DNA from: a virus | Taxonomy: Duplodnaviria; Caudoviricetes | Virus record (IMG/VR): IMGVR_UViG_3300021124_000016 | Span: 1-35,035 of that record | Strand: one strand, 5' to 3' | DNA length: 35,035 bases | In this document: positions 2,130 to 33,103 of the stretch, piece by piece | How positions within the stretch are numbered: the first letter of the stretch is position 1 | Layout: the number at the start of each line of letters is the position of its first letter | Position numbers and translations under genes: made by a program | The notes under the pieces: generated by a model | The model's input: the letters and a program-made list of their open reading frames with translations, nothing else | Databases searched by the model: none | Told to the model about the DNA's origin: nothing

Positions 2130-2350
2130 TAACTTATAGCCTTTAAAAGCTATCCCAAACGGTTTAAGCAAACCTAGCCTACCTAGATTTGCCTTCATAC
2201 GCCACCCAGTACGGAATCGCATAACCCGACAGTCTTGCATGGTATAGGCACTATCTTCGCCACCTATATTGCGCTGTTTCAACCATTACCCCCAGTAGCG
2301 CTTTTAATCCTATTCCCTGGTATGTCGTTAGAGCCTCGAAATAGGAAAGT
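2130..2350 (-). ncRNA. candidate structured non-coding RNA (or ssDNA origin structure) between the Cro-like and initiator-like genes
   Basis: At least five stems (+ coordinates 2308-2316/2338-2346, 2271-2275/2297-2301, 2243-2250/2261-2268, 2168-2177/2183-2192, 2136-2142/2147-2153). Their imperfections are G-U pairs on the minus strand. No ORF of 60 aa or more. Confidence 0.65.
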
Positions 2351-26267: not shown

Positions 26268-27191
26268 TCAGCGTATACGTTTCGCTTGTCTTGCAGCTTT
26301 CCATTGTGCATAAGTACCGTGAAATGCTCCATTGCCATCAATGAGAACATCTGCTGTACCTTTGCCTGCTGTAAGAGGCTTAATAGGCGCTGGTGCTTTA
26401 CTTCTAGCAACAACTTCCTGCTTGGGTTCTACTTTTGGCGCATCCTTCGCCTCGAACCTCGCTTCTAACTTACCAATTTCTCTAAGAGCTTTGATCGGGG
26501 GCATTGCTGCGATCTTTTGAGCAATATCATCATCTGAAGCTAAGTGATATAGGATTTGAGGGCCTACATCAGACTCTAAAATAGCATCCCTTACAGCATC
26601 GCCTACTACTACGGTGCTAGAAGCTACCATTTCTTCAAAATCAGGCATTTCAGTTTTAGCTTTATTGACACGTTCAGTCCATGCTTGATTAAGTTTTGCA
26701 CGTTCTTCGTTTGCCCTGCGTTCTGCTTCTTGCTTATCTCGCTCAACTAAAGCCTTTTCTGCGCTCCATTCAGCTAATGCTTCTGCATATTCAAAAGCAT
26801 CTTGAAACTGACTAGCTTGAGGTTTTTCACCCAATACGTCAGGCTCTTGATACTGCTGTTGGGGTGCATTTTTGGCTTCAAGCTCTTGCAAACGACTTTC
26901 TAATGCTTGCTTATCTGCTTCAGCTTGTTTGGCACGATTAGTAAGCTCTCGAAAACGCTTTTCAATCTTGGGATTAGATTTGCGATCTTCTGTTGCTTTC
27001 GCTTCTTCTTCTGCTTCTGGTAAATTCTCGGCTTGGGCCTCGACTGATGGCTCTGACTCAGGAGTTTCCTCGACTGCTTCAGCCGCAACAGGGGCTTCTT
27101 CGCTGGCTAAACCAAGTTTTTCAGCATGGAAATCAGCTAAATTATCGGATGTGACTACGTTTGATGCTGTTCTTACAACTTCTTCTGACAT
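26268..27191 (-). CDS. scaffolding protein
   Basis: Acidic coiled-coil; EKRFRELT, GPQILYHLA, SKAPAPIKP; basic C-terminal helix; between portal and coat. Confidence 0.9.
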   Translation of the reverse strand: MSEEVVRTASNVVTSDNLADFHAEKLGLASEEAPVAAEAVEETPESEPSVEAQAENLPEAEEEAKATEDRKSNPKIEKRFRELTNRAKQAEADKQALESRLQELEAKNAPQQQYQEPDVLGEKPQASQFQDAFEYAEALAEWSAEKALVERDKQEAERRANEERAKLNQAWTERVNKAKTEMPDFEEMVASSTVVVGDAVRDAILESDVGPQILYHLASDDDIAQKIAAMPPIKALREIGKLEARFEAKDAPKVEPKQEVVARSKAPAPIKPLTAGKGTADVLIDGNGAFHGTYAQWKAARQAKRIR

Positions 27192-27258
27192 GAGTATTCC
27201 TCAAGAATTAACCCAATGAACCCATTGGTAGGTCATACAAATTCGTTTATATCATTAA

Positions 27259-27276
27259 TGTTGCTTTTTTACAACA
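27259..27276. promoter_or_regulatory. TGTTG-N8-CAACA palindrome overlapping the -35 box of a scaffold/coat promoter
   Basis: TGTTGCTTTTTTACAACA; minus strand TTGTAA-17-TATAAA. Confidence 0.6.
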
Positions 27277-27277
27277 A

Positions 27278-27682
27278 TTAATCTTTGTGTAAAAGTTCAG
27301 GATTCCATATTCTGTAATGTTTTGTTCCATCTTTATCTACAGAAAACTTTAATCCGTGATAACCCTTATCTATTAATTCATCTGTAAAATATTTATCGGC
27401 TTCTTCATGCCCACCCATTTTCATTTTATCTTCATCAATATATCTTTTTATTACTGCGCCTTTACCTGTTGCAGCAACTTCACCAATTTTAGGATTAGTT
27501 GTAAACCAAATTGAATTATCTGCACTATGACTTGTATCAAAGCCGTGTTTTTCTATTTTTTTGGCTGCTTCGTGTGAAGTGCCATGATAAATTGGTATTA
27601 AATTAGGTTTTTTATTTTTAATACCCATCTTTTTTTTATCATGTTCTGCTTTATTTGCAGAAGTTACAATTTCTCTAGCCAT
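27278..27682 (-). CDS. ADP-ribosyltransferase-like protein with N-terminal MAREIVTS leader
   Basis: IYHGTS...IEKHGF...IWFTT...GYHGL pattern of HGT/S-type ART folds. Confidence 0.65.
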   Translation of the reverse strand: MAREIVTSANKAEHDKKKMGIKNKKPNLIPIYHGTSHEAAKKIEKHGFDTSHSADNSIWFTTNPKIGEVAATGKGAVIKRYIDEDKMKMGGHEEADKYFTDELIDKGYHGLKFSVDKDGTKHYRIWNPELLHKD

Positions 27683-29757
27683 TATATTCCTCTTTCTATA
27701 GCTTCTTCTTCAGCCAATTTGCTTTCTCTAAGGTTCATTTTTGCTAAAACCAAAGCTAATTGAGCTTTCATCTGCTCAATTTCTTTCTGAGTTTCAGTCT
27801 TAATAATGGTGTCGTGCGCTGTCGTATCCGTACGCATTTGCGTATCTTCACGTTTAACTTGCAGGCGCATCTTCTCACGCTCTGTTTCAGCTTCTTGTAC
27901 CTGTTGCTGGACAGTTGCACGGTATTTCTTATCCATTTCTTCAGCTTGGATTTGTTGCTGGAGTTGCTGGATTTGTTTCTGAGCATTAGCCAGTTGCATT
28001 TGAACTTGTGGTGGCACAGGTGATTTTTCGTCAATTTGCGCCATAGGATTAAGTGCAGCAAGGCGATCAGCAATAACATCAGCGCCAGGGAAGTCTTGGT
28101 TTCTAAACCATAAGTCACCAATCTGTTGCATCAATGCAGGATCAGCAGCCAAGATAGTTGCCATAGAATCTGCTGCTTCTTGACGCTTAGAGTTGTAACC
28201 AGGGCCTGTATCCATCACAACGTCATATTCGCCTACAGTTACGTCATTTAATACCTTAGACACGCCTTCTTCGTCTTGACCTTGCTGATTGATGGTAATC
28301 ATCTCAGGTTTGCCATCATCGCCAATAATCCGCATGACACGCTCACGGTCATAAATCTTAGGGATCAGATCAAGAATAATGCGCCCTGTGTGACGAATAC
28401 TACGAGTCAAATTGTCGTAGTAGTGGAAGTTAGTCATATCAGTTTGTTGCTGCTGACCTTGTAAGGCTTTGCCTGACATCATGCCTTGTGGCAGTTGGCT
28501 AGGATCAAAGATACCTACAACTGCTTGTAAATCTTGGTTCATGCCTTGTAATGCTGACATTACGCCTGCTGGAGGTGGCTCTGGCTGTATTCTTTGTGGC
28601 ATTTGTGCAATTCTGCCTTCAGAATCAGTCTGCTTATAACGCAAAATAGGCATAGCTTTAATGTTAGCCATTGCCCATTCGTTCTCATGCCCTTCATCTT
28701 GGCCTTCTGCCAATAGCCACTTAGCTTTAGGAGCTAATGCTACAGTTTCAGTCAATGCTGTTGACCAATAGTTATACATACGCTGTGGATCTTTTGCCAT
28801 GCGTACTAGACCAAATTTCTTGTGCTTATCGTCAACTCGTACTTCTTGACCATAAGTAGGCACAATAGGGATGAATTTACCAGCCCATTCGCCTTCTTCA
28901 AGGATTTGCATAGCAGTTAGCTTGCAATACTTAATCTTTTTGCGCCATACATCACGTTTAGAAATAACAGTAATGCCAGCAGCTTCTAATACGTCTTTCT
29001 TAGGAATCTCTGTGGAATAGCCTGTAGTGCCATCAGATAGCTCTAAAAGCATATCTTTGTAGCGTTCTGTATAGAAATACTCAGCTATGCGTATATCTTC
29101 CTTAGTGACCCATTCGCTTTCCGTATCGCCTGTTCCTCTGCTGGAAAACCCTTGGTCATACTCTGCATCGGGGTACATTTTCCTAAATACGTCTTTAGAA
29201 ATAACCGTTGTAATGAGCACTCTCTCGGCATCTGATCCATCTGGTTCAACGCTATTAGGATCAAAATAAACGGTAAAGGGGTTTTCAATACGTTTAATGT
29301 AGATTTCTTGGTCAAAGCTGTCATCCCTTACATAATCTGTAGTAATGCGCCAGTAACCCCAGCCCATCTTGACTGCATATTCAAATGCGTGATCGTAAGC
29401 TTGGTCAGCATCGGATTGATTCTCAATGTGTCTAGTAATGCCTGTAATGATCTCTGCGACCTTCTCATCAGCCTCATTGTTCATGCCATGCACTTTAATG
29501 CGTGGGCGCTGTTGACGTTGCTGATTACAGATTTGACGAATATACGCATCAACTTTATTGATGGTCAGGCAAGGTCTAGCTTCTAAAACACGGCTATTTT
29601 GCACATCTACAGGCCATTGATCGCCTGCTGCAAATCTCACATCATCTAAGGCTTCAGCACGATTATTGCTGTCTGAATCGTTACAAAGTCTTAAAAAATC
29701 TTTAGCTTCTTGGATTCTTCCATCGGATTGTGAGTCTGCAACGCTATCGTATGCCAT
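27682..29757 (-). CDS. portal protein (P22-like)
   Basis: GDQW...RPCLTINK, KDPQRMYNYW, SGKAL, GEYDV...GP.Y.SKRQE; C-terminal coiled-coil barrel; 691 aa. Confidence 0.95.
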   Translation of the reverse strand: MAYDSVADSQSDGRIQEAKDFLRLCNDSDSNNRAEALDDVRFAAGDQWPVDVQNSRVLEARPCLTINKVDAYIRQICNQQRQQRPRIKVHGMNNEADEKVAEIITGITRHIENQSDADQAYDHAFEYAVKMGWGYWRITTDYVRDDSFDQEIYIKRIENPFTVYFDPNSVEPDGSDAERVLITTVISKDVFRKMYPDAEYDQGFSSRGTGDTESEWVTKEDIRIAEYFYTERYKDMLLELSDGTTGYSTEIPKKDVLEAAGITVISKRDVWRKKIKYCKLTAMQILEEGEWAGKFIPIVPTYGQEVRVDDKHKKFGLVRMAKDPQRMYNYWSTALTETVALAPKAKWLLAEGQDEGHENEWAMANIKAMPILRYKQTDSEGRIAQMPQRIQPEPPPAGVMSALQGMNQDLQAVVGIFDPSQLPQGMMSGKALQGQQQQTDMTNFHYYDNLTRSIRHTGRIILDLIPKIYDRERVMRIIGDDGKPEMITINQQGQDEEGVSKVLNDVTVGEYDVVMDTGPGYNSKRQEAADSMATILAADPALMQQIGDLWFRNQDFPGADVIADRLAALNPMAQIDEKSPVPPQVQMQLANAQKQIQQLQQQIQAEEMDKKYRATVQQQVQEAETEREKMRLQVKREDTQMRTDTTAHDTIIKTETQKEIEQMKAQLALVLAKMNLRESKLAEEEAIERGI

Positions 29758-29759
29758 GC

Positions 29760-30179
29760 TTATTCCTTGTCTGACTTAACTGGGTGGCGATACATTGAAT
29801 GACTAATTGAAAAGTCTTTATGTTTGCCTTTGTTTTCAACAAATCCATGTTTTTTGTAAAAAGCCTTTAATCTATCTACAGAAGATGCGCCAAAATCTTT
29901 AGATGGGCTTAAATCTATGCGCTTTCCATGTTTATCTGCATGAGCAGTTAAATCAGACATAAATTGAGAACCAATCCCTTCGCCTCTTTTTTCTTTTGGA
30001 ACAACAATACGGCTTAATTCAATAGCATTTTTTCCGCTATAAACATCTGAAATAACGCCATGCTCTTTATATTTTTCAGATATATGTTTTACATCTTTTG
30101 GCTCTTTATCAGCATTTGGATTCATCTTTTTATTGATGTAATCTTCACGGTTTTCTGAGGTAACAATTTCTCTAGCCAT
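29760..30179 (-). CDS. GNAT-family acetyltransferase with N-terminal MAREIVTS leader
   Basis: LSRIVVPKEKRGEGIGSQFM (motif A); RLKAFYKKHGF (motif B). Confidence 0.85.
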   Translation of the reverse strand: MAREIVTSENREDYINKKMNPNADKEPKDVKHISEKYKEHGVISDVYSGKNAIELSRIVVPKEKRGEGIGSQFMSDLTAHADKHGKRIDLSPSKDFGASSVDRLKAFYKKHGFVENKGKHKDFSISHSMYRHPVKSDKE

Positions 30180-30236: not shown

Positions 30237-31526
30237 TTAGCCCATCCAGCTTGCTGGCAGTTGATAATTAGCTTTCTGTTTTGGCGCTTTTCTAGGCTCA
30301 TTGACCATTAGCCCGATGTATCTAAAAGCATCCGCTCCGTGGCTGTAATTGTTGTGCAAGGGCTTTTGACTAAATTGCTTGGTGTCAGGATCTACGTCAT
30401 AACGATAATGGCGCAGGCATTGCAAGCCATCGTAACAGTTATTGCGATCAAACCAGCACTTATTAAAGATCATCCTAGCAGCATTGATTGAATCTACTAT
30501 TGGCGTACGTTCAATGACTCTAGTGTTATATCCCGCAGCTCTAACAATTTCTTCGATACTTCTGCCATTAGAAGATAATGTTTTATTCCCTGCATCATGA
30601 GGCAACCAAAGAGTGTCGATAACGTATCCATATTCTTGTATTTTAGCAAGATAGTGGGCTATTGTCTGCTGGGTGTTCTCGTAATACCGTATTAGTCTTG
30701 TTTCCATGCCAATAAACTGAACAAACCAAATAGCAGTAGCATCTGCCCAGCCCAAATCAAATACAGCGTGAACAGGCTTAATTGGATCGTAGGGTACATT
30801 AGTTATCCTTCCATCTAGTTCTGCTAGATTCATCTCTTTAGCAAATATAGCACCATCTACTGTTTGGCGGCATAAACCTTCCCAAACTGTATTGTAAGCA
30901 TCCCTATCCCTGCTAAATAGGGCATCTTTTTCTAATTTGAGCGTATCAGGAAACCAGGGATTGTCTGACCAATTAACTTTGACAGTCTTGCAGTTTTGAG
31001 GCGGATTAACCACAAACCTCTGATACGTTTCATCGCTTTCGAGTTCTGGGTTAAATGTGACCCAAATTTCAGAGCCTTCTTTTCGGATCGTAGGTATGAG
31101 AATGTTCCATGAATTACGGCTGATTGAGGCACTTTCCTCTGTCCAACAAATGTCGACCCCTTCGTATGATTTGATGTTTGCCGTATTGTTCTTAAGCCCA
31201 ACGAACGCAAACTCCGTTCCATTCTTCCCTCGGATGGATGTTTGAGTAACTTCATAAAAACTTTCTAACTTTAATTCTACGATTTGATCTGCTAATAGTT
31301 TATGAACAGATTGGCCTATCGAGTTTTGAAACTCACGGGCGCAGAGAACCCTAGTAGGTTTTTTAACACCAAGCACAAGTAATGCCCTAGCGACACCCCA
31401 AGATTTAGCGCCTCCACGACCACCATAAAGCACCTTATAGCGCATTGAATCAAACAAAAATGCAAGCTTATGTGGGAATTCAACGGCAGATAACGATTCC
31501 CGAATCTCTGATGTGATTTCACTCAC
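30237..31526 (-). CDS. terL: terminase large subunit (PBSX/Terminase_3-like)
   Basis: YGGRGGAKS Walker A, CAREFQNSI, WTEES Walker B, TFNP; nuclease DLG..D and HGADAFRY. Confidence 0.96.
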   Translation of the reverse strand: MSEITSEIRESLSAVEFPHKLAFLFDSMRYKVLYGGRGGAKSWGVARALLVLGVKKPTRVLCAREFQNSIGQSVHKLLADQIVELKLESFYEVTQTSIRGKNGTEFAFVGLKNNTANIKSYEGVDICWTEESASISRNSWNILIPTIRKEGSEIWVTFNPELESDETYQRFVVNPPQNCKTVKVNWSDNPWFPDTLKLEKDALFSRDRDAYNTVWEGLCRQTVDGAIFAKEMNLAELDGRITNVPYDPIKPVHAVFDLGWADATAIWFVQFIGMETRLIRYYENTQQTIAHYLAKIQEYGYVIDTLWLPHDAGNKTLSSNGRSIEEIVRAAGYNTRVIERTPIVDSINAARMIFNKCWFDRNNCYDGLQCLRHYRYDVDPDTKQFSQKPLHNNYSHGADAFRYIGLMVNEPRKAPKQKANYQLPASWMG

Positions 31527-32040: not shown

Positions 32041-32180
32041 TTCTTTTTACCTTTCTTGGCTGCTTCATTCTTAACTGCGTAGCTAATCGCAACAGCTTGC
32101 TTTACTGGCTTACCAGCTTTTACTTCAGTCTTGATGTTTTCTTTAAACGCTTTGGCGCTTGTGGATTTCTTTAGTGGCAT
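32037..32180 (-). CDS. small Lys-rich protein, 47 aa
   Basis: Manual ORF MPLKKSTSAKAFKENIKTEVKAGKPVKQAVAISYAVKNEAAKKGKKK*; coupled at both ends. Confidence 0.8.
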   Translation of the reverse strand: MPLKKSTSAKAFKENIKTEVKAGKPVKQAVAISYAVKNEAAKKGKKK

Positions 32181-32455
32181 TAGCAGTTCCAGTTCTTTAG
32201 TGATGCCTTGGCTCGTTCTGCTGGGCCTTTGGCTTTTTTAACAACGCCTTCCATCCTTGCACAAAAAGATGCTTTACGACCTTTATCTTTTTCTGTCTTA
32301 GGATTTGGGGCAGGGGCTTTTAAATGACTTTTGTTCTTGGCATTGTATTCAGCACGACCTTTGGCAGTCATACCAGCGCCTTTTTCCGTAGGGTTGTATG
32401 TCTTACCCTTACCAGTAGTCTTATGGGCAATAGATTTATCGTGCTTTGTAGCCAT
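32180..32455 (-). CDS. small basic phage protein (DUF6321-like)
   Basis: GMTAKGRAEYN...LKAP...RKASFCARM...SLKNWNC. Confidence 0.75.
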   Translation of the reverse strand: MATKHDKSIAHKTTGKGKTYNPTEKGAGMTAKGRAEYNAKNKSHLKAPAPNPKTEKDKGRKASFCARMEGVVKKAKGPAERAKASLKNWNC

Positions 32456-32781
32456 TATTTCTTCGCAGTCTTAGCAGATTCTTTAAATGCTTTAGCTGTA
32501 GGAGCACCTTTAGTGCCAGGTTTACGCATCTTCTCTACAGGCTTGCCTTCTGCCTTTTCTTTCTTAATGCGTTCTTGTTTAGCATGAATATTGGCATATA
32601 AGCCAGGTTTAGTAGCCACGGTTTTTTCCTTTCGGGTGGTTGCTTTCTTAAGTTGTGGTTTTTTTACAACATCTTTAAGTTGTTGCTTATTTACAACAAA
32701 TTGTTTTGGGGCTGGAAAAGGCCAAGGTAATTCTGCTTTAGGCTTTTCTTTTGCAAATAAGCGCTTAATCCATTTAATCAT
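32455..32781 (-). CDS. Lys-rich protein; possible second in-frame start at GTG 32619
   Basis: C-terminal half KPGLYANIHAK...MRKPGTKGAPTAKAFKESAKTAKK has its own AAGGA RBS. Confidence 0.7.
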   Translation of the reverse strand: MIKWIKRLFAKEKPKAELPWPFPAPKQFVVNKQQLKDVVKKPQLKKATTRKEKTVATKPGLYANIHAKQERIKKEKAEGKPVEKMRKPGTKGAPTAKAFKESAKTAKK

Positions 32782-32782
32782 A

Positions 32783-33103
32783 TTATTCCCCATCTACCCA
32801 GCAAACGTCTTGCCAGCTCATTAAAAGACACTTTTCACCATTATGGTTAATAGGTGTGAATTTCAAATATTCCTCTTTGGGATCGTCATTCATAGTGCCA
32901 AAACGCACCCGTTGACCTACTTCAACAGGCATTGCTTCTCGTCTTGTGGTTGACAATCTCTTGCCAGGCCCTACTGCGACTACTGTTCCCATATTCTCTG
33001 CTTCTTTATTGTTTACAAGAATTACAGAACTTAAAACACGAACATCTGGGCGGACTATTATCTTGTCCCCCAGAGGTTTAAAAGTTACAATTTCATCAGC
33101 CAT
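32783..33103 (-). CDS. groES: co-chaperonin GroES (Cpn10) homologue
   Basis: FKPLGDKIIV...GTVVAVGPG...VEVGQRVRF. Confidence 0.9.
   Translation of the reverse strand: MADEIVTFKPLGDKIIVRPDVRVLSSVILVNNKEAENMGTVVAVGPGKRLSTTRREAMPVEVGQRVRFGTMNDDPKEEYLKFTPINHNGEKCLLMSWQDVCWVDGE

Follow-up and report, generated by a model that had tools for sequence, protein, structure and literature searches.

Why should two unrelated genes on either side of a phage portal gene begin with nearly the same peptide, and why does the scaffolding protein encoded next to them carry a related one? This question is raised by a 35,035-nucleotide virus sequence (Duplodnaviria; Caudoviricetes; positions 1 to 35,035 of IMG/VR record IMGVR_UViG_3300021124_000016), hereafter called the window, which belongs to a P22-like podophage. 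The genes concerned encode a GNAT-family acetyltransferase, an ART-like protein and the head scaffold, a homologue of P22 gp8 (Table 1). The original prediction, made from the sequence alone, held that a leader of about 19 amino acids borrowed from the scaffold loads interchangeable protein-modifying effectors into the procapsid for co-injection. We found that a scaffold-derived peptide tag is real, widespread and apparently undescribed. From the sequence comparisons below, we consider that it is probably a procapsid-loading label copied from the scaffold onto cargo proteins, with a probability of roughly two in three.

One peptide in three genes of the head module

BLASTP of the GNAT protein against the ART-like protein aligned residues 1–14 only (9/14 identical, E 0.001), the next segment reaching E 9, as expected if the two share an N-terminal tag and are otherwise unrelated. 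The first 17 nt of the two genes are identical and 41 of the first 57 nt match; in the 30 nt upstream, only 13 positions do. Codon comparison agreed with the earlier reading that, beyond the identical stretch, the codons for V, T, S and N differ only synonymously (gtt/gta, acc/act, tca/tct and aac/aat). The further claim that the scaffold N-terminus carries a related peptide was also borne out: scored against the cargo tags, scaffold residues 12–27 (VVTSDNLADFHAEKLG) reached a mean BLOSUM score of 30.5, against 6.1 for the next best scaffold window and a mean of −9.9 (sd 6.7) for all of them.

In a six-frame scan of the window with a tag profile built without scaffolds, the GNAT, ART-like and scaffold genes were the top three matches (29.9, 26.7 and 10.7 bits, respectively). 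Nothing beyond these passed 4.5 bits, the other early and late proteins being untagged. The portal protein is likewise without the tag, its top tag-like window scoring just 10.2; a weakly tag-like coat window (residues 267–282, score 17.7) was taken as chance. The tag of the ART-like protein is a divergent form, and homologous bodies elsewhere bear the canonical one. Of the predicted 19-residue leader, the existence of a short leader stood and its extent was corrected: the conserved unit is residues 5–20, and the MARE start is optional.

The tag is conserved as a protein signal

The overall consensus of the tag is xVTSENxxE[FYW]xxx[LM]. Cargo proteins among the profile matches follow [IT]V94 T99 S94 E77 N98 R76 x E83 [FY]90 x x K K [LM]99, and scaffolds follow V V T100 S96 E85 N100 [LR] A E [FW]99 x A x [KR] L. 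In a set of 164 distinct tagged proteins, 144 carry the tag at the N-terminus, 10 at the C-terminus and 10 internally (two of these internal rows being a scaffold fragment and a chance match); in the profile-match set of 118, it is C-terminal in 4 and internal in 8. In 13 unrelated bodies from loci selected by their scaffold, the codons for VTSEN are near saturation at synonymous sites (pS 0.68) with the residues kept (pN 0.16), and all 16 tag codons gave values of 0.68 and 0.33. The tag serine is encoded by both TCN and AGY codons. This selection and position analysis started from 33 clusters, of which 28 were left once a scaffold, a chance match and three truncated fragments had been dropped. 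As judged from these sequence patterns, the tag is a protein signal.

Many unrelated bodies carry the tag beside the portal and scaffold genes

A search of 1.84 billion representatives with a 32-column tag profile retrieved 146 proteins at E≤1e-3, of which 29 were assigned by script and inspection to scaffold N-termini and 117 to small proteins other than scaffolds, 10 rows of one listing and one row of another being reassigned by eye; a third class was not seen. When the tag was masked, the 102 non-scaffold carriers of at least 60 aa fell into 46–49 unrelated body clusters. An exact DNA pattern located 76 loci in 2.9 million viral contigs, and at all 76 no tagged open reading frame (ORF) was more than 600 nt away from a portal or scaffold gene encoded on its own strand. 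A looser DNA pattern gave 97 loci in metagenomes; 73 had a head-gene anchor, the match being the scaffold itself in eight, and the 24 without an anchor included some short tagged fragments and several chance matches in unrelated proteins. Three matches in genome contigs, considered as prophage or host carriers, were judged chance, none being a tagged ORF in a head module.

The check originally proposed, a profile search expected to reveal many different bodies behind one tag near portal or scaffold genes, thus gave the predicted outcome, and the profile and locus surveys together support a portable, scaffold-related peptide under protein-level selection on many interchangeable domains. The opposite outcome, a tag limited to two genes or a reused translation start, is excluded by the 117 non-scaffold carriers and by their conservation at the protein level.

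We also chose 143 loci by scaffold similarity alone, which yielded 91 distinct portal–scaffold junctions. Thirty-six were empty and 55 held inserts, comprising 65 inserted genes of which 54 were tagged and 11 fell below the tag threshold; because the profile was trained partly on these sequences, the 54 are not an independent count. Inspection of these 11 showed that six retain the helix half of the tag, two are HNH-like, two are of the phrog_2579 type (one tested) and one has no assignment. Phages with scaffolds 94–98% identical to that of the window had empty junctions or different inserts. On this comparison, the inserts are optional and exchanged between near-identical phages.

The two untagged HNH-like genes (L190:4537-4929 and L213:3418-3906), which we take to be HNH endonucleases from a motif recognized by eye, occupy the same portal–scaffold site and form a natural negative control.

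Most tagged bodies match no Pfam family

The window GNAT protein passes the curated cut-off of its Pfam family (27 bits) and is a member of the acetyltransferase family, its activity being predicted. Its body recurs at 47–67% identity in 28 longer proteins, 10 of which also have ART-PolyVal. The ART-like protein scored 19.9 bits against ART-PolyVal (PF18760), under the cut-off of 31.2, which three other tagged proteins pass. Searches with its predicted model gave ART-class top rows in Foldseek and VIA at modest scores (Foldseek E≥0.006, Z≤7.4), and a cyanophage A4 pre-ejectosome domain was among the fold matches (Z 5.8). In the ESM Atlas, the leads were viral clusters at 0.90–0.91 and one to ART-PolyVal at 0.89. 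H33-G-T is invariant in 34 homologues; the third catalytic residue was not pinpointed. Of 33 homologues, 11 have this body after the tag and 22 have it after a different leader.

These other leaders are several, recurring at the N-terminus of phage proteins with the ART-fold body (P0040–P0061), which suggests that they are further addressing modules.

Pfam was run on representatives of the cargo set (87 of the 117), giving eight GNAT, six ART-PolyVal (three above the cut-off), one VapB-like and 72 without a match. Because only 15 of the 87 match any Pfam family, the predicted description of the cargo as protein-modifying effectors with an N-terminal tag was too narrow: GNAT and ART bodies do exist, but they are a minority, and the tag is also internal or C-terminal. 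Among the cargoes of the surveyed loci are a GP88 domain and bodies that are presumably ParB-like. Cargo size ranges from 56 to 394 aa, with a median pI of 9.2.

The tag copies a conserved island of the scaffold

The scaffold profile matched the P22 scaffold (9kyw/8i1v, E 1.4e-5, residues 82–278), and the top six Foldseek rows were P22 scaffold chains. Homology of column and base, together with a gene position between portal and coat, marks the protein as gp8-type. In 16 scaffolds at 49–75% identity, V12, T14, N17, L26, G27 and L28 are invariant, and the motif forms a conserved island followed by an acidic linker. The predicted structure has a helix at residues 18–25 and pLDDT below 50 over residues 32–70, consistent with disorder; none of the solved structures searched spans the tag. 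Eight metagenome scaffolds (one of them assigned by eye) start with VTSENRA[ED]FM, the exact cargo form, and reciprocal profile retrieval linked the scaffold motif with the cargo tags, confirming that the tag is a sequence copy of the scaffold motif.

The residues that follow the motif differ in charge between the two classes. The window scaffold has a net charge of −9 across the 30 residues after the tag; scaffolds in general have a median of −7.5 (22/24 negative), against a median of +2 in cargo (66/106 positive). Histidine makes up 6.3% of tagged versus 2.1% of untagged ART domains (14 vs 22 sequences) and 4.9% of tagged versus 1.1% of untagged GNAT domains (7 vs 24 sequences), that is, 3–4 times the untagged level, and lysine is likewise higher, with p-values that overstate these differences because the compared sequences are related and the samples not independent.

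A proposed loading mechanism

By sequence comparison, scaffold and cargo carry one motif, which is free in chain position, under selection as protein, confined to the portal–scaffold interval and attached to optional, exchangeable cargo. In the loading mechanism that we propose, the 16-residue peptide, a copy of the conserved N-terminal motif of the scaffold carried by unrelated small proteins flanking the portal gene, would form a helix that docks at the procapsid-interior site used by the scaffold's own copy; by taking up that site, it would bring whichever domain is attached to it into the head during assembly. The docking partner would be a conserved head protein or the scaffold lattice. 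In two motif-keeping phages, the coat proteins are 78–92% and the portal proteins 68–72% identical, and putative ejection proteins give partial matches of about 39% or none. Because coat and portal are conserved while the fast-changing ejection proteins diverge, either of the former is a likelier partner and ejection proteins are disfavored; the coat protein is a candidate.

Upon DNA entry, the acidic scaffold would exit uncleaved, as in P22, and the Lys/His-rich cargo would stay with the DNA. We propose this step because the acidic N-loop of P22 has been implicated in scaffold exit and gp16 loading, and because the internal proteins of T4 are basic and loaded through a peptide. Cargo such as the GNAT and ART-fold pair would then be set free in the next host and act early there in host takeover or counter-defence, and short helical cargoes would serve as internal DNA-associated proteins. 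These last roles are the least certain step, with about even chances. More tentative still, at somewhat under even odds, is an import scheme of the P22-type podophages of this clade, without protease and independent of tag position, in which a 16-residue docking helix built from the scaffold carries at least 46 exchangeable, mostly family-less cargo families, and the flanking charge sets their fate, acidic chains being released and basic ones kept and injected.

Besides the non-independence of the composition samples, several points weigh against loading and delivery. The original prediction expected the tag to co-vary with the cognate scaffold N-terminus, and it does not: in 107 pairs, tags scored 29.2 against their own scaffold motif and 30.1 ± 0.46 against shuffled ones (p 0.97), which fits either one tolerant site or a host partner. 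The inserts below the tag threshold (11 of 65) include two ART/ParB-labelled enzyme-like genes of phrog_2579 that were expected to be tagged. As for charge, the stretch following the tag is net negative in 24 of 106 cargoes and neutral in the window GNAT protein; small tagged proteins could also leave through the scaffold's own exit holes. The P22 N-loop gave no alignment with the tag motif, and P22 genetics therefore applies by position only. There is also no close cultured relative: the nearest named phage, PBR31 (35% scaffold identity), has an eroded motif and no insert. A scaffold motif with tagged inserts was likewise not found in DSL-LC05, P26218 or three Manatee Spring records; because these more distant or cultured relatives lack both, the system looks limited to a clade, albeit a large group of uncultured P22-like phages.

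A micro-protein of 56–63 aa (58-aa form; L181:4758-4934 and 38 more tree rows), which consists of the tag and a basic helix and is encoded directly before the scaffold gene, likewise tells against cargo as a sufficient account. It is fixed in 39/39 rows of one clade (SH-aLRT 100), in which 7 of 18 scaffold variants retain an intact core motif, versus 39 of 43 elsewhere; fixation and erosion together count as one evolutionary event. The pattern in this clade suggests that some tag carriers, at least, take part in head assembly.

Alternative explanations

The tag might dock on the assembly machinery and its carriers act in the producing cell, either as competitors of the scaffold N-terminus that tune how heads assemble or by bringing enzymes to procapsids against host defences that sense portal, terminase or coat, and then leave with the scaffold rather than be injected. 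We regard this as unlikely. The micro-protein speaks for it, its fixation beside an eroded scaffold motif looking as if an assembly function were supplied in trans, though in that one event. SaPI CpmB is an example of scaffold mimicry without delivery (PMC5644958), and a producing-cell alternative is named for head-region ARTs in PMC9503650. However, the 46–49 unrelated bodies, their fast exchange and the 36 of 91 junctions that are empty fit accessory cargo better than control of assembly, and the tagged domains are enriched in His and Lys, in keeping with contact with packed DNA.

Less probable again is that the peptide has its partner elsewhere than in the head (for example, late mRNA or a chaperone or protease of the host) and thereby controls jointly how abundant or stable the late proteins are. 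A host partner would be consistent with the finding that tags do not co-vary with their cognate scaffolds. The P22 scaffold N-terminus has been tied to translational autoregulation as well as to exit (10.1101/2022.12.13.520362), which also counts against reading that terminus through loading. Such co-regulation is at odds with the lack of a tag on other early and late window proteins, the confinement of carriers to the portal–scaffold interval and the occurrence of the tag at either chain end or mid-chain.

That the shared start is a relic at the DNA level, a recombination boundary or reused translation start at two insertion sites, accords with the 17 identical nucleotides and with inserts that use the portal start region or overlap the portal stop, and common tag DNA may well assist cassette swapping, but this explanation is largely refuted and very improbable, because the tag stands at the N-terminus, at the C-terminus or internally in several families, is an island of conservation in the scaffold, and keeps its residues at near-saturated synonymous sites with serine drawn from both codon blocks.

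Head module and other features of the genome

Table 1. Head-module genes and tag copies in the window (positions on the 35,035-nucleotide stretch)
Feature	Position	Strand	Evidence and remarks
TerL (terminase large subunit)	30237-31526	-	Pfam Terminase_3 E 2e-37; upstream bound of first insertion site
Tagged cargo gene 1, GNAT-family acetyltransferase, 139 aa	29760-30179	-	Between TerL and portal; Pfam Acetyltransf_7 33.6 bits
Tag in GNAT gene, residues 5-20, IVTSENREDYINKKMN	30120-30167	-	Profile search and sequence comparison
P22-like portal protein, 691 aa	27682-29757	-	Pfam P22_portal E 2.9e-181; untagged
Tagged cargo gene 2, ART-fold protein, 134 aa	27278-27682	-	ART-PolyVal E 0.0013 (below cut-off); ART-class fold matches
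Tag in ART-fold gene, residues 5-20, IVTSANKAEHDKKKMG, divergent form	27623-27670	-	Profile search and sequence comparison
Head scaffolding protein, 307 aa, P22 gp8 homologue	26268-27191	-	phrog_8865 E 4e-42
Tag in scaffold, residues 12-27, VVTSDNLADFHAEKLG, then acidic low-confidence linker	27111-27158	-	Conservation, predicted structure, charge
P22-type coat protein, 410 aa	25003-26235	-	Pfam P22_CoatProtein E 3e-37

The start of the ART-like gene overlaps the portal stop codon. The leader of the scaffold gene (80–86 nt; window 27192–27260, minus strand) hardly varies with whether a locus is filled or empty, and it can fold into short hairpins before the ribosome-binding site, which makes it a candidate site of autoregulation. 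In several relatives (L081:4874-6629, L118, L089, L155 and MW202674, the last at L328:16569-18084), the coat gene is split near codons 53 and 109 by insertions of about 200–250 nt that look like self-splicing introns; at gathering score, Rfam gave no match in L081 or L328.

Upstream of the terminase, the window encodes a GroES-like co-chaperonin (32783–33103, minus strand; Pfam Cpn10, E 4e-10), also present at this place in PBR31, DSL-LC05 and MW202674, and two small basic proteins (32180–32455 and 32455–32793, both minus strand) assigned to DUF6321 and phrog_16028. These two domains form the C-terminal ends of far longer phage proteins elsewhere, and in DSL-LC05 and MW202483 they recur ahead of portal or terminase; the pair is possibly a second portable head-associated module. 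DUF6321 was rejected as a tag carrier, the tag profile giving 1.8 bits. A phage-borne copy of the Rfam Betaproteobacteria-1 RNA (2224–2347, minus strand; 95.5 bits against a cut-off of 49.4) hints at a betaproteobacterial host.

Comparison with known systems

In T4, one shared peptide, the capsid-targeting sequence (CTS), loads the diverse basic internal proteins IPI–III (PMC9026906; PMC3012670). The resemblance lies in a short peptide common to small, basic, dispensable and highly diverse proteins with a proposed role in counter-defence; the tag studied here, too, is a short peptide on unrelated small basic proteins. In contrast, the T4 CTS is an N-terminal propeptide cut by the protease gp21, and the tag is the scaffold's own N-terminal motif and is free in position (C-terminal in 10 and internal in 10 of 164 proteins). 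In this P22-type podophage, no prohead protease family was found among the 51 window ORFs scanned.

Polyvalent proteins packaged in virions repeatedly contain comparable GNAT and ART domains (PMC5512222). MuF/SPP1 gp7 fusions and polyvalent proteins are portal-adjacent and join a constant targeting part to variable ART, GNAT or other domains (PMC6316719, PMC5512222 and PMC9503650), and their domain repertoire overlaps with that of the tagged cargo; the constant part of MuF fusions is a folded portal-binding domain, unlike the 16-residue peptide on proteins of 56–394 aa described here. MuF (Phage_Mu_F) had no match in the 51 window ORFs, 30 locus cargoes or 87 representatives. The arrangement of a gene at the portal with variable bodies, enzymatic ones included, was nevertheless seen at 76/76 loci (GNAT, ART-PolyVal, GP88 and ParB-like).

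SaPI1 CpmB is likewise a second protein that reuses a 16-residue scaffold motif, presumably reaching the binding site of the scaffold (PMC5644958). CpmB copies the C-terminal helix-and-hook of the 80alpha scaffold, is a single protein of a parasite and redirects capsid size; here, the phage's own genes copy the N-terminal scaffold motif onto dozens of bodies, and the C-terminal hook is not copied.

The P22 gp8 N-loop (residues 1–57) is described in PMC12005531 as acidic, structurally unresolved and implicated in scaffold release and gp16 loading. It occupies the same place in a homologous scaffold, does not align with the motif, and is not reported to be copied by a P22 accessory protein. Our literature search, which covered few subscription papers, found no account of this motif or of copying of the scaffold N-terminus in P22-like phages. 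The motif bears on the loading of internal proteins by P22-type scaffolds and on the binding partner of their N-loop: evolution has isolated it from the scaffold and reused it on dozens of proteins, so a single peptide could reveal the binding site. If loading is correct, the tag is a minimal uncleaved loading tag for P22-type particles and picks out from sequence more than 100 candidate virion-delivered proteins, most without a known family; if charge also sets their fate, the cargo library, with its 46 or more families, would provide a ready catalogue of counter-defence proteins that the virion delivers. Taken together, these comparisons indicate that the tag would work like the T4 CTS and the MuF fusions yet belongs to neither, and that it resembles CpmB but draws on the other end of the scaffold.

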